Positions 4,908-55,858 of a stretch of 64,000 bases of DNA are shown here, in pieces. A program made the translations under genes and the position numbers. Below the pieces are notes generated by a model that saw nothing but the letters and a program-made list of their open reading frames with translations, ran no database searches and was not told the DNA's origin. The DNA is from Candidatus Omnitrophota bacterium (GTDB lineage Bacteria; Omnitrophota; Gorgyraeia; Gygaellales; Profunditerraquicolaceae), in the NCBI GenBank assembly GCA_018825985.1, contig JAHKAP010000047.1, positions 2,719-66,718 on the forward strand. The letters run 5' to 3'. The first letter of the stretch is position 1. Each line of letters opens with the position of its first letter.

Positions 4908-4922
4908 TATGGAAAGAAAAAA

Positions 4923-9671: not shown

Positions 9672-9745
9672 AATAGGAAAATAGGGACAGCGACTATTTT
9701 TTTAAATATAGTATGTGAAAAAAATAGTCGCTGTCCCTATTTTCT
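9672..9745. repeat. REP-like hairpin, type B (AAATAGGGACAGCGACTATTTTT ... AAAAATAGTCGCTGTCCCTATTT)
   Basis: 23-bp inverted repeat. A second copy lies at 40152-40216. Confidence 0.7.
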
Positions 9746-9789: not shown

Positions 9790-9838
9790 TTGGGGTCAGA
9801 ATTATTTTTTTGTTAAAAAATAATTCTGACCCCATTTT
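9790..9838. repeat. Paired REP type A (GGGGTCAGAATTATTTTTTTGTTAAAAAATAATTCTGACCCC)
   Basis: Inverted pair with a 4-nt loop. Same core as the RAYT flanks. Confidence 0.8.
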
Positions 9839-12444: not shown

Positions 12445-12872
12445 TAAGAATATTAGTGATCCATGGCCCGAATTTAAATCTTCTCGGGGCAAGAGAACCC
12501 GAGGTCTACGGCCGGATAACCCTGAAAGCCATTAACCAGGCTTTAAAAAAAATGGCCGGTAAAAAGAAAGTTGGTTTGTCGATCATTCAGTCTAACCACG
12601 AAGGCGAAATAGTCGATAAAATCCACCAGGCCGGCAAAAAATTCCAGGGGATATTAATAAATCCCGCAGCTTATACCCATACGAGCGTAGCCATCAGGGA
12701 TTGCCTGGCCGGATGCGCTATTCCTACGGTTGAGGTCCATCTCTCCAATATTTATTTCCGGGAAGAATTTCGTCAAAAATCCTTGGTAACTCCTGTGGTG
12801 AAGGGTACGGTTATGGGTTTTGGCAAAAATAGCTATTTGCTGGGATTAGAGGCCCTCCTGGATATAATATAG
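12441..12872 (+). CDS. aroQ: 3-dehydroquinate dehydratase, type II
   Basis: [15 protein letters not shown] and [10 protein letters not shown] motifs. Confidence 0.9.
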
Positions 12873-12873
12873 A

Positions 12874-12943
12874 AAAATGGGGTCAGAATTATTTTTTCTC
12901 TGGTCTACTTTCTAAAAAAATAATTCTGACCCCATTTCTCAGA
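12874..12943. repeat. Paired REP type A
   Basis: AAAATGGGGTCAGAATTATTTTTT...AAAAAATAATTCTGACCCCATTT. It ends 6 nt before the pepP-like start. Confidence 0.8.
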
Positions 12944-12948
12944 GGTAT

Positions 12949-14010
12949 ATGAATAACAAAATAAAAGATATTTACCATAAATTAAAAGAAGAAGGCTTGG
13001 ATGCATTGCTGGTGTTATCGCCGGCTAATATTTCTTACCTGACGGGTTTTTTATCCAGAGATGCCCATCTATTAGTTTCTTCGAAAAAGAATATTTATTT
13101 TACCGACAGCCGTTATATCCAGGCAGTAAGAAAAAGTTTAAAAGGTTGCCTTCTTAAAGAGGCAGATTCTAACGGTTTTAAACACTTTATGGAGGCTTTT
13201 TATAAATTAGGTTTTAAGCGCCTTGGTTTTGAGAAAGAGCATTTATCGTTAGCGCTTTATCAGAAGCTCAGGAGAGAATCTGCCGGCAGGGGAATTACAT
13301 TGATCCCGGTCTGCGGAATCATAGAGGAGTTTAGGCAGATAAAAAATGAAGATGAACTGGAAAAGATTCGGTTTGCCTGCGGCATAGCCATAAAGGCTTT
13401 AAGGAATATAAAAGATTTTATTGCGCCCGGGAAAAGAGAGATAGAAGTGGCTGGAGAGCTGGAACGGTATCTGCGTTACGCAGGCGCATCCCGGGCCTCT
13501 TTTGATATAATAGTAGCCTCGGGGCCTAATTCCAGCCTTCCGCATCATATAACCGGCTCAAGGAAGATCAGAGATAATGAACCGGTGCTGGTGGATGTTG
13601 GGGCTGATTATTTGGGTTATAAATCTGACTTGACAAGGGTTTTCTTCTCAGGTAGAATAAACACTCTTTATAGAAAGATCCAGGATATAGTCCATAAAGC
13701 CCGGGATCTGGCCGTGCAAGAGATAAAACCCGGCAAGATCGCCCGGGATATTGATTTTCTGGCCCGTTCATTTATAGCTGAAAAAGGGTATGGGAAGTAT
13801 TTTTTCCATAGCCTGGGCCATGGGATAGGTTTAGAGGTCCACGAAGGCCTGAGCCTATCCCCTAAAAGCGATAATATTTTAAAATCCGGAATGGTATTAA
13901 CGGTTGAGCCGGCAATATACCTGCCTGATAAGTTCGGCTCAAGGGTTGAAGAGATGGTTTTAGTTACCAGGAAAGGATGCGAGGTGCTTAGTGGGGCTCT
14001 CGATAAATGA
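12949..14010 (+). CDS. M24 family Xaa-Pro aminopeptidase
   Basis: Creatinase-like N-terminal domain plus a pita-bread fold (HSLGHGIGLEVHE). Confidence 0.85.
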   Translation: MNNKIKDIYHKLKEEGLDALLVLSPANISYLTGFLSRDAHLLVSSKKNIYFTDSRYIQAVRKSLKGCLLKEADSNGFKHFMEAFYKLGFKRLGFEKEHLSLALYQKLRRESAGRGITLIPVCGIIEEFRQIKNEDELEKIRFACGIAIKALRNIKDFIAPGKREIEVAGELERYLRYAGASRASFDIIVASGPNSSLPHHITGSRKIRDNEPVLVDVGADYLGYKSDLTRVFFSGRINTLYRKIQDIVHKARDLAVQEIKPGKIARDIDFLARSFIAEKGYGKYFFHSLGHGIGLEVHEGLSLSPKSDNILKSGMVLTVEPAIYLPDKFGSRVEEMVLVTRKGCEVLSGALDK

Positions 14011-14560
14011 AATTAAAAACGGTTTAACTTTATTGATAGACAATGATGCATATGTAGTCATTGATTTTCAGCAGGTCAAGCCTGGAAAAGGCGCTGCTTT
14101 TGTCCGGGTTAAAATACGCAATCTTAAGACCGGAAATGTGCAGGAGAGGACTTTTCGGGGCGATGAAAAGATAGATGAGGCTTATATAGAGGAACGCAAA
14201 CTCCAGTATCTTTACCTCTCGGGAGAGATGTATCATTTTATGGATCAGGAGAATTATGAGGAATTGGCGATCTCCAAGGATGTTCTAGGAGAAAAGACCA
14301 GATTCCTTAAAGACAGTCTGGATATTATCGCCTATCAATATAAAGACGAGGTTTTAAACGTAAACCTCCCTAATTTCGTGGAGTTTGAGATTATTCATAC
14401 CGAACCGGGTATTAAAGGAGATACGGCTAAAAGCGGCACTAAACCCGCTGAGATTGAGACCGGGGCCAGTATTCAGGTTCCGCTTTTTATCAACACCGGA
14501 GACAGGATTAAAGTGGATACCCGATCCGGCAGTTATATTGAAAGGGCGTCCGGATCATAA
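13991..14560 (+). CDS. efp: Translation elongation factor P
   Basis: Matches EF-P over three OB domains (KPGKGAAFVRVKIRNLKTG). GTG start overlapping the pepP-like 3' end. Confidence 0.9.
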   Translation: MGLSINEIKNGLTLLIDNDAYVVIDFQQVKPGKGAAFVRVKIRNLKTGNVQERTFRGDEKIDEAYIEERKLQYLYLSGEMYHFMDQENYEELAISKDVLGEKTRFLKDSLDIIAYQYKDEVLNVNLPNFVEFEIIHTEPGIKGDTAKSGTKPAEIETGASIQVPLFINTGDRIKVDTRSGSYIERASGS

Positions 14561-14576
14561 CAAAGGGAGCTTGGGG

Positions 14577-14735
14577 TGAACCCAGCACCTTCTTTATAAA
14601 TCAGTAATTATAATACAACGCTTTAGTTTCGTTAATAAGAAAGAAGGTGCTGGATGAATCCCGCACCTTCCAAAAGATTAAATAACTTAAAGCGAACGGT
14701 TTTAATATCATTAATAAAAAGGAAGGTGCTGGATG
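14577..14735 (+). repeat. Two head-to-tail copies of an ~80-bp MITE-like element with 11-bp terminal inverted repeats (CCAGCACCTTC / GAAGGTGCTGG). Each copy ends in SD plus ATG; the second copy supplies the accB start.
   Basis: Copies at 14577-14656 and 14657-14735, plus a third copy at 24741-24820. The ends are conserved: GAAYCCMGCACCTTC … AATAARAARGAAGGTGCWRGRTG. Confidence 0.7.
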
Positions 14736-15194
14736 AATATCAAAGAAATTAAAGAGATGATCAATCTCATGAATGAAAACGAATTAGTGGAGCTGGAAGT
14801 TGAAAAAGAGGGTATGCGTATAAGGTTAAAGAAAACCACGGCTGAGACTCAAGGATATAACGGGCCGGTAGTCATAGATAGGCAAAAGATGCCTGAGGCA
14901 TCGCATCATAAAGAAACCGGCATTTCGGCAATTACCGAAAAACCCCAGATAAAAACAGTGGAAGTAAAGGCTCCGATGGTCGGGACTTTTTACCGCGCCC
15001 CTTCTCCGGAAGCGCCTCCTTATGCTGAAGTAGGCCAGGTTGTAGAGCCGGGCCAGGTGGTCTGTATTATCGAAGCTATGAAATTAATGAATGAGATTAA
15101 ATCTGAGATCCGGGGGAAGATCGTTGATATTCAGGTTGACAATGCCGAGCCGGTTGAGTTTGGCCAGCCGATGTTCATTATAGAACCTCTATAA
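14733..15194 (+). CDS. accB: Biotin carboxyl carrier protein of acetyl-CoA carboxylase
   Basis: Biotinyl-lysine motif EAMKLMNEI. Confidence 0.9.
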
Positions 15195-16569: not shown

Positions 16570-16926
16570 ATGTTAGATAGGCAGGATTCGCGCACAGATC
16601 TGGGCATAATCAGGATCCATAAGAATGCCATAGCATCGATTACTTCTATAGCTGCCAGCGAAATAGAAGGGGTAAGTTTCCTGGGAGAGAGTTTTAGATT
16701 TAGCTGGTGGTTATTGTTGCGCAAGAAAAAGGCCTGTTCGATCAGGGTAGAGATTGATAAGAATCAGGAATTAAAGATTACCATACCTCTGGTAGTAAAA
16801 TACGGGTTTAATATTCCCGATATAGCTTCAAGTGTCCAGGAGAATGTGCGGCAAGCGTTAGAAAATAGCACTAATCTCACTTTAAAAGATATAGATATCG
16901 TGGTCAAGGGCGTAAAGAAAGATTAA
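16570..16926 (+). CDS. Asp23/Gls24-family alkaline shock protein
   Basis: Asp23 domain signature (IRIHKNAIASITSIAASEIEGV … VKYGFNIPDIASSVQENV). Confidence 0.7.
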   Translation: MLDRQDSRTDLGIIRIHKNAIASITSIAASEIEGVSFLGESFRFSWWLLLRKKKACSIRVEIDKNQELKITIPLVVKYGFNIPDIASSVQENVRQALENSTNLTLKDIDIVVKGVKKD

Positions 16927-22451: not shown

Positions 22452-23153
22452 ATGGAGAAAATGAGGGGATATTTATTAAGGAATAGAAAAAGAATAACCT
22501 ATATACTATATACTACATACTTTATGCTGTTCTTGGTCGGGTGCGCCAGTACTACAGTTATTAAGCCAACACATCCCGGCGCGGCCAGGCCGGAAGGTGT
22601 TTATCACCGGGTGGAAAAAGGCCAGACCCTTTGGGCAATTTCTAAGAAATATTCGGTGGATATCGATAGCCTTGCCAGGGCAAACCGAATTTTTGATACT
22701 GCCAGGATAGAAGTAGGGCAGTTAATATTTATACCTGAAAATAAACAGCCTGCTGCGGTTAAGGTTTATTCAAACGATGATTTTATCTGGCCCTTAGAAG
22801 GAAAGGTTGTATCCAGTTTCGGCCAGAGTTTTAATAACATGATCAATAAAGGATTGAACATCCAGCCGGCCTCATCTGCCGATATCCTGGTTTCTCGCAG
22901 CGGCAGGGTAGTTTTTTACAGCGATAATTTTATTTCTTTCGGTAAGACCTTGATCGTTGATCATCAGGATGGATTCTTAACTGTTTACGCTGGGATAGCG
23001 CAGGCTTTGGTTAAGCTTGGCGATGATATTTTAAAAGGCGTTTCCATAGGCAGGGTTTACCCGACAAGTAATTTGGCAGGGGGTAAACCGTATTTACATT
23101 TTGAGATCAGGAAGGGGCATTTAGCCCAAAACCCATATTTTTATCTGCCATGA
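22452..23153 (+). CDS. LysM plus M23 peptidase lipoprotein (NlpD/EnvC-like)
   Basis: Lipobox LVGCAS, a LysM domain (YHRVEKGQTLWAISKKY), and an M23 C-terminal domain. Confidence 0.85.
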   Translation: MEKMRGYLLRNRKRITYILYTTYFMLFLVGCASTTVIKPTHPGAARPEGVYHRVEKGQTLWAISKKYSVDIDSLARANRIFDTARIEVGQLIFIPENKQPAAVKVYSNDDFIWPLEGKVVSSFGQSFNNMINKGLNIQPASSADILVSRSGRVVFYSDNFISFGKTLIVDHQDGFLTVYAGIAQALVKLGDDILKGVSIGRVYPTSNLAGGKPYLHFEIRKGHLAQNPYFYLP

Positions 23154-24742
23154 ACGAAAATAATATTTTTGGAAGACAGGTCTATTTGGATATCCTGGAA
23201 AAGCGGATCAATGATTTTAAAGAAGGCTACCGTCAGAATATCGCTATAATTGGCGATGAGTCTATCGGCAAGACTTCTCTGGTCTTTGAATTCCTGCGCA
23301 AATTTTATGATAATAGCGTTATTACCGTATATCTTGAAGTAAGGCCGGAATCCCTGGCTACTTTCGGTAAGCGGTTTATCGGGGTATTACTTTATAATTT
23401 CCTGGTTAATAGCAATATCAATCTAAAAGAAGATCTGGATTTTCTAATCAATAAATCTTACTCTTATATACCGAAAACCGTAGACAAGATCCGGGTGATA
23501 CTTAAGGATTTGGAAAAAAGGAAAAAAGATAATATCTTCTTTGACCTGCTATCTCTCTGCGATCTAATTTACCAGGAGACCGGAAAGCTTAGCCTGGTGA
23601 TCATGGATGAGTTTCATAATTTTGACAACGCCCAAGCAAAGAAGTTATACAGCGAATGGTCCAAGAGCCTGATGGTCCAGAAGAATACAATGTATATAAT
23701 CCTGAGTTCGTCTGTCTGCCGGGCCCGGGCCCTGCTCTCCAAAGAACTTTCTCTTTTATTTGGCAATTTTCAGGTAGTTGAGATAGAGCCTTTTGACGCC
23801 CAAACCACGGAAGAATACTTAAGCCTTAAATTAGAAGGTATTAATATCGATCCGGAGTTGAAAAATTTCCTGGCCCATTTTACCGCCGGCCATCCGTTTT
23901 ACCTGGAGATCATTGCTAATCTTTTGCTGAAATCTCCGCAGGTTGACCTGGTTGACCTGCTGGAGGATATTATTTTTGAATCATCCGGGATTCTTAACCA
24001 GAGGTTTCATAATTATCTTAAACGGTTTGAATCCGGAAAACATAGTGATGTCCATATCGCGATCCTTTATTCGGTCTCCCGGGGCCAGAATAAGATCAAA
24101 GACCTTGTCCATATTACCCACACGCCTAAAAAAGAATTAGAGTCCCGGATCAATTATTTATTAAGCGTTGATGCCCTTAGCCGCAACGGAGATTTTTTAA
24201 AGATAAATGACCGGGTTTTTAGTTTTTGGCTAAGGTTTGTTTACCAGCAGAAATTGCGTTCTTTTACATATGATGCCCAGAATCAAAAATCGGTATTCAG
24301 GAAGAATATCGAGGATATGGTCGGTGAATTCCTGAATAGCTCAGGAAAGAGCGTTTTTCAGAGGGTAAAGGAGCTATTGAACCTTTTTGCGGATGACTCG
24401 ATCCAGATAGAAAAAAAGAGGCTTAAGCTTACTCACTTCCGCGAGATAAAAAAGGTGGAATTTACTAATCGCGGGATCAGGGAGGGGTTGGTCTGCCGTT
24501 CCGGCGAGAGCCTCTGGATCATCGCTTTCAAGCCGGATGTTTTGAATGAAATAGATATCAGTGAATTCGCCAGGGAATGCAAAAAATTCCGCTATAGACT
24601 CCAAAAAAAAATTATTATCACTATGCGGGAGATGGACGCTAATAGCCGTTTAAGGGCATTAGAGGAGAAGATTATGACTTGGGATGTGGATAATCTAAAC
24701 CAGATATTGGATCTTTATTCCCGGCCAAGGATAGCTATATGA
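23150..24742 (+). CDS. Archaeal-type AAA ATPase (PF01637-like) with a DUF234 C-terminal domain
   Basis: Walker A (IGDESIGKTS) and Walker B (VIMDEFH). The architecture is typical of ATPase_2/DUF234 proteins. Confidence 0.55.
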   Translation: MNENNIFGRQVYLDILEKRINDFKEGYRQNIAIIGDESIGKTSLVFEFLRKFYDNSVITVYLEVRPESLATFGKRFIGVLLYNFLVNSNINLKEDLDFLINKSYSYIPKTVDKIRVILKDLEKRKKDNIFFDLLSLCDLIYQETGKLSLVIMDEFHNFDNAQAKKLYSEWSKSLMVQKNTMYIILSSSVCRARALLSKELSLLFGNFQVVEIEPFDAQTTEEYLSLKLEGINIDPELKNFLAHFTAGHPFYLEIIANLLLKSPQVDLVDLLEDIIFESSGILNQRFHNYLKRFESGKHSDVHIAILYSVSRGQNKIKDLVHITHTPKKELESRINYLLSVDALSRNGDFLKINDRVFSFWLRFVYQQKLRSFTYDAQNQKSVFRKNIEDMVGEFLNSSGKSVFQRVKELLNLFADDSIQIEKKRLKLTHFREIKKVEFTNRGIREGLVCRSGESLWIIAFKPDVLNEIDISEFARECKKFRYRLQKKIIITMREMDANSRLRALEEKIMTWDVDNLNQILDLYSRPRIAI

Positions 24743-24820
24743 GCCCCGCACCTTCTAAAATATTAAATCATTAAAGGCAAATGGTGTTAGGGTTATGAAT
24801 AAGAAAGAAGGTGCAAGGTG
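24741..24820 (+). repeat. Third copy of the ~80-bp MITE-like SD-carrying element. It supplies the SD and GTG start of the yfcE-like gene.
   Basis: About 80% identical to copy 2 at 14657-14735. It begins at the stop codon of the upstream ATPase gene. Confidence 0.7.
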
Positions 24821-25309
24821 AGGATCGGGGTGATCGCAGATACGCATGTTCCGGACAGGGCTAAAAAAATACCGGATGAAGTTCTAAAGGCCTTTAGAAA
24901 TGTAGATATGATTATCCACGCCGGAGACCTGGTCGTTTTAAACGTGTTGGAAGATCTTAAAAAGCTCTGCCCTGACGTGAGGGCAGTCTGCGGCAACATG
25001 GATTGTATTCATGTGCGTAATAATTTTCCCGATAGAATGCTGATCAAAGCAGGCGAAGTTAATATCGGGGTAATGCATGGGTTTGGGCCGGTCGGGAGCT
25101 TAATGGATGTTTTAAAAGAGGCTTTTAAGAAAGAGAAAGTGGGCCTGATCATATTCGGGCATTCTCACAAGGCATTTAATAAAAATAAAGATAATATCAT
25201 TTTTTTTAATCCCGGAAGCCCGACTGATAAATTATTTTCATCCTACAATTCTTATGGTATTATAGAGATTAAAGGCAGGAATATTGATGCCAAGATAGTT
25301 AAATTATAA
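24818..25309 (+). CDS. YfcE/MJ0936-family metallophosphoesterase
   Basis: GVIADTH, HAGDL, GNMD and GHSH motifs. Confidence 0.8.
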   Translation: MRIGVIADTHVPDRAKKIPDEVLKAFRNVDMIIHAGDLVVLNVLEDLKKLCPDVRAVCGNMDCIHVRNNFPDRMLIKAGEVNIGVMHGFGPVGSLMDVLKEAFKKEKVGLIIFGHSHKAFNKNKDNIIFFNPGSPTDKLFSSYNSYGIIEIKGRNIDAKIVKL

Positions 25310-25310
25310 A

Positions 25311-25390
25311 TGTAAATGGGGTCAGAATTATTTTTCTTATTTTACTTACCCGAAAAATAATTCTGACCCCATTTAGACCCCATTTACAAG
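25311..25390. repeat. Paired REP type A, flanked by a 25-bp direct duplication (25283-25309 and 25391-25417)
   Basis: GATGCcAAGATAGTTAAATTAtAAA repeats as GATGCgAAGATAGTTAAATTAaAAA. The first copy contains the yfcE stop. Confidence 0.75.
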
Positions 25391-36465: not shown

Positions 36466-36547
36466 GAAATGGGGTCAGAATTATTTTTTCTTTAGTCTGG
36501 CGCTCGAAAAAATAATTCTGACCCCATTTCTGCTGACCCCATTTCTG
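36466..36547. repeat. Paired REP type A with an extra partial 3' repeat (GACCCCATTTCTG x2)
   Basis: GAAATGGGGTCAGAATTATTTTTTC…GAAAAAATAATTCTGACCCCATTTCTGCTGACCCCATTTCTG. Confidence 0.8.
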
Positions 36548-40151: not shown

Positions 40152-40216
40152 TAAATAGGGACAGCGACTATTTTTTAGCTCGCTCTCCCTATTTAAAAAA
40201 TAGTCGCTGTCCCTAT
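40152..40216. repeat. REP-like hairpin type B, second copy, with a diverged middle copy
   Basis: AAATAGGGACAGCGACTATTTTTT … AAAAAATAGTCGCTGTCCCTAT. Confidence 0.7.
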
Positions 40217-43794: not shown

Positions 43795-43931
43795 AGAAAT
43801 GGGGTCACAAGAAATGGGGTCACACAAGAAATGGGGTCAGAATTATTTTTTCGTATCAAGTAAAGTAGACAAAAATAATTCTGACCCCATTTCTCAAAAA
43901 TAATTCTGACCCCATTTCTTGACCACATTTC
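43795..43931. repeat. Compound REP type A cluster: three tandem GAAATGGGGTCA half-sites, one full pair, and an extra 3' half
   Basis: AGAAATGGGGTCA x3 … AAAAATAATTCTGACCCCATTTCT x2. Confidence 0.8.
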
Positions 43932-47881: not shown

Positions 47882-47946
47882 GAAATGGGGTCAGAATTAT
47901 TTTTTCTTTATTTTATGTGCTCGAAAAAATAATTCTGACCCCATTA
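47882..47946. repeat. Paired REP type A
   Basis: GAAATGGGGTCAGAATTATTTTTTC…GAAAAAATAATTCTGACCCCATTA. Flanked by the similar 13-mers AATATGAATGAAA and AATTATGAATAAA. Confidence 0.8.
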
Positions 47947-51383: not shown

Positions 51384-51477
51384 AAATGGGGTCAGAAAAT
51401 GGGGTCAGAATTATTTTTTCTTTTTGTTTTATTGTAAAAAATAATTCTGACCCCATTTTCTGACTGACCCCATTTAC
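51383..51477. repeat. Compound REP type A (two left halves, one right half plus an extra partial)
   Basis: AAATGGGGTCAGAAAATGGGGTCAGAATTATTTTTTC…AAAAAATAATTCTGACCCCATTTTCTGACTGACCCCATTT. Confidence 0.8.
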
Positions 51478-55682: not shown

Positions 55683-55756
55683 GCGCCTGTAGCTCATAAG
55701 GATAGAGCAGCAGTTTCCTAAACTGCGTGCGGCAGGTTCGATTCCTGCCAGGCGCA
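55683..55756 (+). tRNA. tRNA-Arg (anticodon CCT)
   Basis: GCGCCTG acceptor stem, anticodon loop TTCCTAA, T-arm GGCAGGTTCGATTCCTGCC, 3' CAGGCGC-A. The CCA is not encoded. Confidence 0.8.
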
Positions 55757-55771
55757 CAAGACAGACAAGGC

Positions 55772-55858
55772 AGGGACACCCCGTCAGCTAATCGTCAGGG
55801 TGTCCCCATACAAAAATAATAGGGACACCCTTAGCTTTATCTGGGAGGGTGTCCCTAA
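55772..55858. repeat. Two tandem hairpins of type C (GGGACACCC…GGGTGTCCC) immediately 3' of tRNA-Arg
   Basis: 55772-55807 and 55820-55858. The GGGACA core is shared with type B repeats. Confidence 0.7.

Follow-up and report, generated by a model that had tools for sequence, protein, structure and literature searches.

Inverted Repeats at Omnitrophota Start Codons as Probable Derivatives of a Small GIY-YIG Nuclease Cassette

The Repeats in the Omnitrophota Window

The window, i.e. the whole 64-kb stretch of DNA that was analyzed, is part of contig JAHKAP010000047.1 in the Candidatus Omnitrophota assembly GCA_018825985.1, and the subject of this report is a family of short inverted repeats, three ~80-bp copies of which lie on its + strand. 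With their flanking repeats, these occupy 14577-14658, 14655-14737, and 24740-24822; copies 1 and 2 form a tandem pair between efp and accB, and copy 3 is located between an AAA-ATPase open reading frame (ORF) and a gene for a YfcE-like phosphoesterase (Table 1). An original prediction, made from the sequence of the window, had placed three elements resembling MITEs (miniature inverted-repeat transposable elements) at these positions, and they are indeed present: the pattern GCACCTTC-N40-70-GAAGGTGC has three matches in the window as compared with 0.00 expected (100 shuffles), and GAAGGTGC alone occurs at six sites in the 64 kb, all six of which are within the three copies. The ends that were described are inverted repeats, but they took in part of the flanking TGAA or TGAG, and the inverted repeat proper is 11-13 bp in length.

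The start codons of accB and of the YfcE-like gene were confirmed by the conservation of the N termini of their orthologues and by Pfam matches that begin at residue 1, in agreement with the earlier proposal that accB takes its Shine-Dalgarno (SD) sequence and start codon from copy 2, and the YfcE-like gene takes its own from copy 3. The AccB N terminus, MNIKEIKEM, is conserved where the site is empty (L024), where it contains one short copy (L052), and where it contains the long cassette described below (L076); L numbers designate the loci fetched for the survey. The SD sequence of accB (GGAAGGTG) is provided by copy 2, the last base of which, A14733, is the first base of the accB ATG; similarly, G24818, following the 3' arm of copy 3, is the first base of the GTG of the YfcE-like gene, and A14654, following the 3' arm of copy 1, completes an ATG. 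A start codon likewise stands 5' of every copy (GTG 14576, ATG 14654, and ATG 24739). The AAGGGAG-N6-GTG just 5' of copy 1 is, to judge from its sequence, probably the original SD and start codon of accB, and in L052 an SD sequence and then GTGAA stand directly 5' of the element at the accB site. The upstream AAA-ATPase ORF terminates with the TGA at 24740-24742, which indicates that the ancestral junction at copy 3 was an ATGA stop/start overlap; at the orthologous YfcE-like site in L045, the copy is flanked by TGAA/TGAA. A tandem architecture like that of copies 1 and 2 is also found in L020, L004, L022, and L038.

The mini-ORFs of the window copies are all broken, spacings of 78, 79, and 79 nt leaving 7, 32 (out-of-frame), and 11 codons in copies 1, 2, and 3, respectively. 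Since that of copy 2 is out of frame and extends 20 nt beyond the accB start, it is a decayed version of the 26-27-codon mini-ORF of the family; it is the upstream ORF from ATG 14654 that had been said to overlap the accB start out of frame, which it does, but its length is 32 codons plus stop and not 34. In the RNA, the SD-bearing 3' arm is predicted to pair with the 5' arm in hairpins of −24.1, −28.7, and −19.2 kcal/mol for copies 1, 2, and 3 (z-scores of −4.8, −6.9, and −1.8). The further suggestion of a regulatory hairpin that sequesters the ribosome binding site (RBS) remains a plausible hypothesis that draws on the fold prediction and a few compensatory changes.

Table 1. Positions of the repeats, their host genes, and other features in the window
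Feature	Position	Strand	Basis and remarks
efp	13991-14560		Pfam
accB ancestral RBS AAGGGAG and ancestral GTG (probable)	RBS 14563-14569, GTG 14576-14578	+	sequence; accB sites of L052 and L024
Copy 1 mini-ORF, VNPAPSL then stop, 7 codons	14576-14599	+	translation
Copy 1 left direct repeat TGAA	14577..14580	+	sequence, flank statistics
Copy 1	14581..14654	+	5' arm CCCAGCACCTTC 14581-14592, loop 14593-14642, 3' arm GAAGGTGCTGG 14643-14653
TGAA common to copies 1 and 2	14655..14658	+	serves as right repeat for copy 1 and as left repeat for copy 2
Copy 2	14659..14733	+	5' arm TCCCGCACCTTCC, loop, 3' arm GGAAGGTGCTGGA; cmsearch 80.3 bits
Copy 2 mini-ORF, 32 codons + stop	14654..14752	+	out of frame, spacing 79 nt
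Copy 2 right repeat TGAA	14734..14737	+	TG of accB start + first two bases of codon 2
Host gene of the tandem pair: accB, for the biotin carboxyl carrier protein	14733..15194	+	ATG 14733; Pfam Biotin_lipoyl
AAA-ATPase ORF	23150-24742
ATGAG: former YfcE-like start codon + left TGAG repeat	24739..24743	+	sequence
Copy 3 mini-ORF, MSPAPSKILNH then stop, 11 codons	24739-24774	+	opened by ATG 24739
Copy 3	24744..24818	+	5' arm CCCCGCACCTTC 24744-24755, loop, 3' arm GAAGGTGCAAG 24807-24817; cmsearch 73.0 bits
Copy 3 right repeat TGAG	24819..24822	+	TG of GTG + first two bases of YfcE-like codon 2
YfcE-like phosphoesterase gene	24818-25309		GTG 24818; Pfam Metallophos_2
Second palindromic family	9791-9834, 12872-12940, 25313-25375, 36466-36530, 43825-43921, 47884-47945, 51391-51464		half-sites near 4921 and 5676
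Third palindromic repeat	9677-9744, 40155-40216		two copies
tRNA gene	55683-55756
Imperfect 38-nt palindrome	55772-55856		directly after the tRNA gene

Distribution of the Family and Its Placement at Start Codons

When species-representative genomes were scanned with the pattern GCACCTTC-N35-55-AATAANAANGAAGGTGC, 54 matches were found in 52 loci from ~20 metagenome-assembled genomes (MAGs), where ~0.4 would be expected by chance (an arithmetic estimate); the further copies that the original prediction anticipated therefore exist. The source MAGs are nearly all Candidatus Omnitrophota, a few being labelled Planctomycetia or Planctomycetales, and a single MAG contains up to 9 or more exact-pattern copies. 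The layout of the copies is (purine-rich SD region)-ATG-RR-YCCC-GCACCTTC-loop-AATAARAAA-GAAGGTGC-GGGR-TG-RR-gene, in which an A or G before the left TGNN makes a start codon there, served by an SD region of its own, and the last base of the element together with the right TG forms the start codon of the host gene.

A census with a relaxed-arm regular expression over all fetched loci, from Omnitrophota MAGs and metagenomes, gave 90 short and long copies. Regular-expression censuses were preferred to a covariance model, R1, which found a few extra copies but hides members of tandems, including window copy 1, as overlapping hits are dropped. In 83 of the 90 copies, all in a single orientation, the right repeat is precisely where an ORF of at least 36 codons begins. 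The others are truncated by the end of a contig or are the upstream partner in a tandem or nested pair, apart from one exception, L011:3772-3848, which lacks a repeat and lies in reverse orientation between two genes. The downstream proteins, with names read from N-terminal sequences and from Pfam matches of gene calls, cluster into 53 families that include accB, rpmJ, rplI, topA, alaS-like, valS/ileS-like, nrdR, rpiB, purN, gcvPB, dxr, murI, gatB, fabH, and others. The expectation that the 3' end abuts a downstream start in one orientation is thus borne out at 53 or more different genes. In ~27 of 61 short copies, including window copy 3, the stop codon of the upstream gene is the TGA of the left ATGA, indicating that the ancestral junction in these cases was an ATGA stop/start overlap.

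The sequence RTGRR occurs at 754 sites in the window, 653 within genes, 63 intergenic, and 38 at gene starts. Because 38 of the 101 non-genic sites are gene starts, random insertion followed by intragenic purging would place ~38% of the copies at starts, as compared with the at least 53 of 54 independent sites at which start codons are found. Detection bias toward conserved arms may contribute to this difference, but not easily enough for 53 of 54 independent sites. No motif was found in the upstream flanks beyond RTGRR and the generic purine-rich SD region, and neither the short nor the long pattern matched in viral contigs, which therefore provide no evidence for a phage vector.

Evidence for Insertion

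The inverted ends, YCCCGCACCTTC and GAAGGTGCGGGR, are 12-13 bp in length (11-13 bp over the copies) and are flanked by a 4-bp direct repeat, TGNN. Of the 54 copies in canonical register, 50 have the same two bases after the TG in both flanks, as compared with 35 expected (permutation p < 1e-5), and all nine right flanks that are not AA (five TGAG and four TGGA) are matched by the left flank; the long copy in L065 has TGCA/TGCA flanks. TGNN therefore varies with the target on both sides, indicating that the repeat follows the target and is not a fixed end.

Empty orthologous junctions, collinear up to the start codon and with a single copy of TGNN, are present in related genomes. The site preceding rpiB is empty in L008 and L044 and occupied in L005, L023, and L030; that of the dCMP deaminase gene is empty in L044 and L023 and occupied in L005 and L008; that of nrdR is empty in L023, L005, and L008 and occupied in L044 and L049; and that of asp23 is empty in L024 and at 16570 in the window itself and occupied in L040 and L046. 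The accB site is empty in L024 (efp-TAA-ATGAATATTAAAGAA) and contains one copy in L052 and two in the window. As an example, the sequence ...aaaatcatATGAGTCC in L008 compares with ...aaaattatATGAG-element-ATGAGTAAG in L005. The identities of the neighboring proteins are 79-93% at the rpiB, dCMP deaminase, nrdR, and L024 asp23 sites and 58-66% at accB; the empty asp23 site of the window has only 50% identity to the occupied ones. Along the rpiB-glyA-dCMP deaminase-nrdR operon, occupancy is a mosaic that varies between genomes. The empty orthologous sites and the covarying flanking duplication show real insertion, as expected for the small mobile element bounded by terminal inverted repeats (TIRs) that had been proposed from the window sequence. 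There are also signs of concerted evolution: of 17 comparisons, 13 place a copy closer to paralogues in its own genome than to its counterpart at the orthologous site of another genome. The loop of one L039 copy harbors a 26-nt mini-hairpin flanked by TGAAT repeats of its own, as a nested insertion.

L039 also contains, at ~2330-2390 on the + strand and before a gene starting at 2388, a 5'-truncated copy of which only the 3' half (…AATAAAAAAGAAGGTGCGGGGTGAA) is left; it adjoins an unrelated 22-bp palindrome, and the part that supplies the SD and start appears to have been kept after the loss of the rest.

These observations bear on the possibility that the hairpins are host cis-regulatory RNAs (a thermometer, riboswitch, or leader-peptide attenuator) that define a translational regulon and are not mobile DNA. 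The pairing of the SD sequence and first start-codon base in stable predicted hairpins would fit such a role, as would two-sided changes that keep the pairs (CCCC/GGGG to TCTC/GAGA in L025 and to TCAC/GTGA in L005, and U-A where the start is ATG), the retention of an open mini-ORF, and the far greater conservation of arms than of loops at orthologous sites. However, symmetrical arm changes are equally expected for the inverted ends of a mobile element, and the at least 53 downstream families (accB, rpmJ, rplI, topA, tRNA synthetases, nrdR, rpiB, purN, and others) have no functional coherence; moreover, close relatives are empty at the same genes, the flanks carry a covarying direct repeat, and the same ends enclose a nuclease gene. 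A search of the whole window against Rfam at the gathering threshold gave two tRNAs only, neither of them near the repeats, and permissive matches in the region were far below threshold; the element thus belongs to no RNA family described there. A regulon of host RNAs is accordingly a very improbable explanation of the family, although it is possible that individual copies have been exapted as regulators.

The Long Form and Its GIY-YIG Nuclease

At L031:6425-6730, the ends of the family enclose ~290 nt that encode a small GIY-YIG protein, and at least 20 other loci are organized likewise. The reconstructed ORF of L031 matches Pfam PF01541 (GIY-YIG, E = 3.9e-16), and a protein search gave 124 homologues, many of which are annotated as "GIY-YIG nuclease family protein" of Candidatus Omnitrophota; many are exactly 100 residues in length, start with MNPAPS, and end with NKKEGAG, these being the peptides encoded by the two arms. 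The catalytic-type residues Y15, Y26, G28, R36, H40, and E72 are invariant. The nearest structures in PDB (phmmer) are UPF0213 proteins, BH0048 (1zg2, E = 1.1e-7) and EF2693 (1ywl, 3.7e-7), followed by SLX1 chains. The proteins of the cassette contain 85-110 residues and consist of the nuclease domain only, with a match to TIGR01453 of 19 bits as compared with a cut-off of 56. The group to which they belong was described as prokaryotic Slx1-like minimal GIY-YIG domains, with a presumed role in repair and mostly vertical descent (Dunin-Horkawicz et al. 2006, PMC1564403).

The DNA of the cassette, ATGAACCCCGCACCTTC…AATAAGAAAGAAGGTGCGGGGTGA(A/G), has the same termini as the short element, and the gene calls show 4-nt overlaps with both neighbors in gcvPA-GIY-gcvPB and dCMP deaminase-GIY-nrdR. 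Scanning of metagenomes for arms 265-295 nt apart gave 30 more loci. Long forms are located at purN, a response regulator gene (TGGA/TGGA), gcvPB (TGCA/TGCA), the dCMP deaminase gene, and accB (L076); the nrdR, dCMP deaminase, purN, and accB sites have the long form in some genomes and the short form in others, and all but purN are also found empty. The GIY-YIG ORF, which is in frame through both arms in most intact copies, is the only coding capacity found between these ends; it begins at the host ATG and closes with a GTGA in which its stop overlaps the next start. P0096, a divergent nuclease, lies between perfect 20-nt ends of a different sequence, and a Sedimentisphaerales-labelled copy retains CCCGCACCTTCT arms; the association of variant ends with variant nucleases supports a cognate link between the two.

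Several departures from the standard organization were noted. In L067, L080, and L082/L083, the leader MNPAPSKY terminates prematurely, and the nuclease, which is read in another frame from an internal ATG of its own, ends with …LNKKE and a stop codon just 5' of a separate KEGAG-stop remnant, as if located inside a short-form shell. The long cassette at the nrdR site of L072 (2500-2510) has CTG in place of ATG as its left start codon (…gagcggcCTGAACCCC), and its nuclease ORF may have lost its initiation codon with the rest intact. There are also short elements that share the ATGA-AYCC…GGRTGAA frame and the position between two genes but have other arm cores, e.g. TCCCGTTAGAG/CTCTAACGGGA and CCCGCCCTTCC/GGAAGAGCGGGG, and that appear to be sister families of the element studied here; these are at L016:760-819, L042:7050-7104, and L022:826-931 and, on the − strand, at L020:3355-3414, L043:2651-2706, and L033:5950-6030.

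A different origin for the repeats would be that they are ordinary MITEs of a conventional insertion sequence (IS) with its transposase encoded elsewhere, the GIY-YIG gene being passenger cargo and the start-codon pattern a product of selection and detection bias. The combination of TIRs with a 4-bp duplication and multiple copies is classical for MITEs, elements of the IS5, IS701, and IS3 types make 3-4-bp duplications, and only arms conserved enough to match were collected. Nevertheless, no IS-sized element with these ends was found in ~600 kb of loci, although the solo-arm search was noisy. The GIY-YIG ORF is moreover the sole coding capacity between the ends, variant ends go with variant nucleases, and the at least 53 of 54 independent sites at start codons contrast with the ~38% predicted for intragenic purging alone, so that an origin from a conventional IS is quite improbable.

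Other identities were considered and rejected. In translational bypass of the T4 gene 60 type, matching take-off and landing sites would be expected, but the TGNN pairs are more simply interpreted as a duplication and an SD sequence and start codon are present. Insertion beside a fixed tetranucleotide, as with IS200/IS605, does not fit with a right-hand TGNN that varies with the target, and REP/REPIN-RAYT systems have GTAG-type tetranucleotides next to a short palindrome, no duplication, a Y1 transposase, and a location mostly downstream of genes, whereas the flanks here are a duplication and the copies are at gene starts; for both groups, the enclosed gene should specify an HUH enzyme and not a GIY-YIG nuclease. 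Integron cassettes with attC sites (RYYYAAC...GTTRRRY, in integrase arrays) were rejected because the ORF is inside the inverted repeat, attC cores are absent, and the copies are dispersed among housekeeping operons. Finally, a conserved functional peptide is not the primary constraint, since substitutions that maintain the stem change the encoded residues (P to L or H) and the loop varies in length.

Origin of the Short Form

The short form has 70-100 nt between its flanks, and its only ORF is the mini-ORF of up to 33 codons. The encoded peptide, MNPAPS-KYSxIKxIxFxELNKKEGAG, is composed of the first six residues of the nuclease and its last ~20 (…AYSGLKLRIxNSLNKKEGAG), and at the DNA level the deletion joins two microhomologies that contain ATTCA. 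The frame of the ATG is open in 38 of 58 short copies, whereas the two remaining frames are open in 2 and 0 copies and the value for shuffled loops is 13%; 41 of the 58 are in the in-frame spacing class, length variants of 74, 80, 83, 92, and 98 nt keep the frame, and 35 short copies end in an xTGA overlap with the host start. The nearest neighbor is a short copy for 47 of 51 short copies and a long copy for 17 of 17 long copies, and this grouping of short with short and long with long suggests that most short copies spread as short elements.

The alternative is that short copies never moved as such, each being the product of decay in situ of a GIY-YIG cassette by recurrent deletion at the ATTCA microhomology, so that the copies in the window would be the tombstones of three invasions by the nuclease gene. 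The four sites that are long in some genomes and short in others can be read in this way, as can the location of the deletion endpoints at a short direct repeat, and arrays of long forms could decay to tandem short copies like those of the window. An array in front of an acetyltransferase gene at L091:1050-1600 comprises a preceding copy, the complete GIY-YIG cassette, and, as a deletion derivative of another size, ~115 nt that still include part of the nuclease ORF, with GGGATGAATCCC junctions shared between them; it looks like a degeneration series in one place, suggesting that in-situ decay also occurs. Against decay as the sole origin, the short copies are a group of their own (47 of 51) with a shared derived interior, …YSxIKxIxFxELN… as opposed to …YSGLKLRIxxSLN…, they are nearer to short copies in their own genome than to the copy at the orthologous site, and a 26-nt mini-hairpin with TGAAT repeats is nested in another copy. 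Selection on the hairpin could mimic the shared derived interior, so that decay in place is weakened by these findings and appears unlikely as a general explanation, though less so than either of the alternatives considered above.

Other Repeats in the Window

A second interspersed family in the window consists of perfect 20-29-bp palindromes, (A)AATGGGGTCAGAATTATTTTTT and AAAAAATAATTCTGACCCCATT(T) separated by a 4-45-nt loop, that lie between genes, e.g. at aroQ/pepP and just 3' of the YfcE-like ORF; one sequence recurs at seven or more sites, and these palindromes look like REP sequences or bidirectional terminators. The third repeat has perfect 23-27-bp arms, ATAGGGACAGCGACTATTTTTT and AAAAAATAGTCGCTGTCCCTAT, on either side of a loop and the layout of a G/C core plus T run that is seen in the GGGGTCAGAATT family. 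The imperfect palindrome that follows the tRNA gene has the form AGGGACACCC…GGGTGTCCCT.

Discussion

The repeats of the window are probably non-autonomous, MITE-like derivatives of a very small selfish cassette of the Omnitrophota that inserts at start codons. Three features of this arrangement were missed in the original prediction: that insertion is at the start codon itself, the duplicated TGNN including its TG; that the original SD sequence and ATG of the host remain upstream and open a mini-ORF through the element; and that the element descends by deletion from a cassette with a GIY-YIG nuclease. The anatomy of the element, the polymorphism between occupied and empty sites, the flanking duplication, the restriction to start codons, the connection of the short form with the long, and the conservation of the mini-ORF are established by the observations above; mobilization of the ends by the nuclease, the way in which start codons are recognized, and any influence of the hairpin or mini-ORF on translation are inferences.

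In the reading that is proposed, a full cassette of ~300 bp, with the ends YCCCGCACCTTC ... GAAGGTGCGGGR around one 100-residue UPF0213/Slx1-like GIY-YIG ORF, inserts at a start codon and duplicates the 4 bp TGNN, which are the TG of the start codon and the two bases that follow. The left copy of TGNN retains the SD sequence and ATG of the host, which now start the ORF of the cassette (MNPAPS...), and, where the upstream gene ended in an ATGA overlap, it also retains that TGA stop. At the right end, the SD and the GTG or ATG of the host gene are rebuilt from the SD-like arm GAAGGTG, the element's final base (G or A), and the TG of the right repeat. Because the ORF of the cassette stops in an overlapping xTGA, gene A, the cassette ORF, and gene B stay translationally linked. 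The 80-bp form is envisaged as arising by an internal deletion between ATTCA microhomologies that joined the N-terminal 6 codons to the C-terminal ~20, and as having then spread as a short element in which the 26-codon mini-ORF was usually kept. Ribosomes from the old start, or reinitiating after the upstream TGA, may translate the 5' arm and melt the hairpin; they would stop at xTGA and either restart on the host gene or expose its SD sequence for fresh initiation. As a consequence of this coupled translation through the element, insertion would cost the host next to nothing, and expression of the cassette would need no signals of its own. With less confidence, it is suggested that the Slx1-like nuclease mobilizes the ends by acting on them in paired form, with a 4-nt staggered cut at A^TGNN.

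Some of the findings weigh against this reading. The flank pairs differ in 4 of 54 copies, and in L067, L080, and L082 the nuclease ORF is in another frame than the MNPAPS leader, so that a single ORF from the host ATG fails there. No known transposase is a minimal GIY-YIG domain, and an enzyme encoded elsewhere may act in trans. It should also be noted that the search patterns needed exact arms, which biases the set toward well-conserved copies; decayed intergenic copies could be missed in this way and the exclusive association with start codons inflated. The survey material is composed of 8-kb loci rather than whole genomes, and some of the 90 copies represent the same contig from different samples, or orthologous sites, so that the independent count is 53 gene families and not 90. 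Last, the efp-accB spacer is 100% identical in four other assemblies that encode an identical AccB, with no copy-number polymorphism, and in this population there is thus no sign of current mobility. Together with the broken mini-ORFs, the identical spacer indicates that the copies in the window are fixed relics; their remaining role is to provide the initiation regions of accB and the YfcE-like gene, within a hairpin that translation of the upstream mini-ORF or gene would need to melt.

Beyond the origin of the repeats, it is possible, and is proposed here tentatively, that the ~300-bp cassette represents an unrecognized class of prokaryotic transposable element in which the nuclease acts on a hairpin or cruciform formed by the element's own ends and inserts it with a 4-nt stagger at A^TGNN, so that the cassette captures the SD and ATG of the host for its own expression and leaves the host gene with a substitute SD and GTG at an overlapping stop/start. 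If so, the cassette would be among the smallest autonomous mobile elements described, and the window copies would be examples of its 80-bp MITE-like derivative. A parasitic strategy of this type would be new for compact genomes, in that a start codon is occupied and the initiation signals of the host are used; since the SD sequence, start codon, and stop/start overlap that the element brings with it would repair the damage, insertion into essential operons would be tolerable. It would also imply a mobile lifestyle, and possibly a new transposition chemistry, for widespread nucleases that have been regarded as repair proteins, and many housekeeping genes of the Omnitrophota (accB, nrdR, rpmJ, rplI, topA, and tRNA synthetases) would owe their SD sequence and GTG to an element. 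The recognition of a start codon by a DNA element becomes a testable question. For genome annotation, the family is a source of spurious ORFs of 26-100 codons upstream of genes and of inconsistent starts, the same nuclease being called as 90 or 100 amino acids.

Comparison with Known Systems

In open-access papers and bioRxiv, no account was found of GIY-YIG cassettes bounded by TIRs, of MITEs that target start codons, or of Omnitrophota repeats, an absence that is no proof of novelty.

Among known elements, the bacterial MITEs, such as the Correia elements of Neisseria, RUP of pneumococci, and ERIC/IRU of enterobacteria, are similar in having a length of ~80-150 bp, TIRs, a short flanking duplication, many copies per genome, presence/absence polymorphism, hairpins in mRNA, and an ability to provide expression signals to neighboring genes; the short form resembles them in size, TIRs, target-site duplication, dispersed copies, and polymorphism. 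However, known MITEs share their ends with an IS that encodes a DDE or other recognized transposase and are intergenic with no fixed register relative to genes, whereas the ends of this family are shared with a ~300-bp cassette whose sole gene encodes a minimal GIY-YIG nuclease, the duplication includes the TG of a start codon, and start codons are the site of almost all copies, in a single orientation, with the SD and start rebuilt and a coupled mini-ORF kept.

The free-standing GIY-YIG homing genes (T4 seg and the I-TevI type) are, like the cassette, selfish genes that lie between host genes, are variably present, and decay after fixation. They differ in that the homing endonucleases have a C-terminal DNA-binding domain, no inverted ends or duplication, and enter one cognate site through double-strand break repair, as compared with a bare ~90-residue domain, TIRs, a 4-bp duplication, and at least 53 unrelated sites for the cassette. 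The closest relatives of the nuclease, the UPF0213/Slx1-like proteins (BH0048, 1zg2; EF2693, 1ywl), are also single-domain proteins, ~90-100 residues in length, that conserve the Y, Y-G, R, H, and E positions of the cassette protein, but no mobile, TIR-bounded form resident at start codons is described for them in PMC1564403.

With respect to their relationship to translation, two other systems are comparable. Leader peptides and upstream ORFs that are coupled to a gene or sequester its SD sequence, such as the erm leader peptides, and the ATGA overlaps of operons share with this family the use of a stop/start overlap and would share with it the requirement that a ribosome open an SD hairpin; they are gene-specific and vertically inherited, whereas the module studied here is mobile, occurs at unrelated genes, and is absent from orthologues. 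The Rickettsia palindromic elements are likewise small palindromic selfish repeats that are tolerated in translated regions with the host frame remaining functional, but they are in frame within ORFs and become part of a host protein, whereas the present element is a separate cistron that replaces the initiation region of its host gene.

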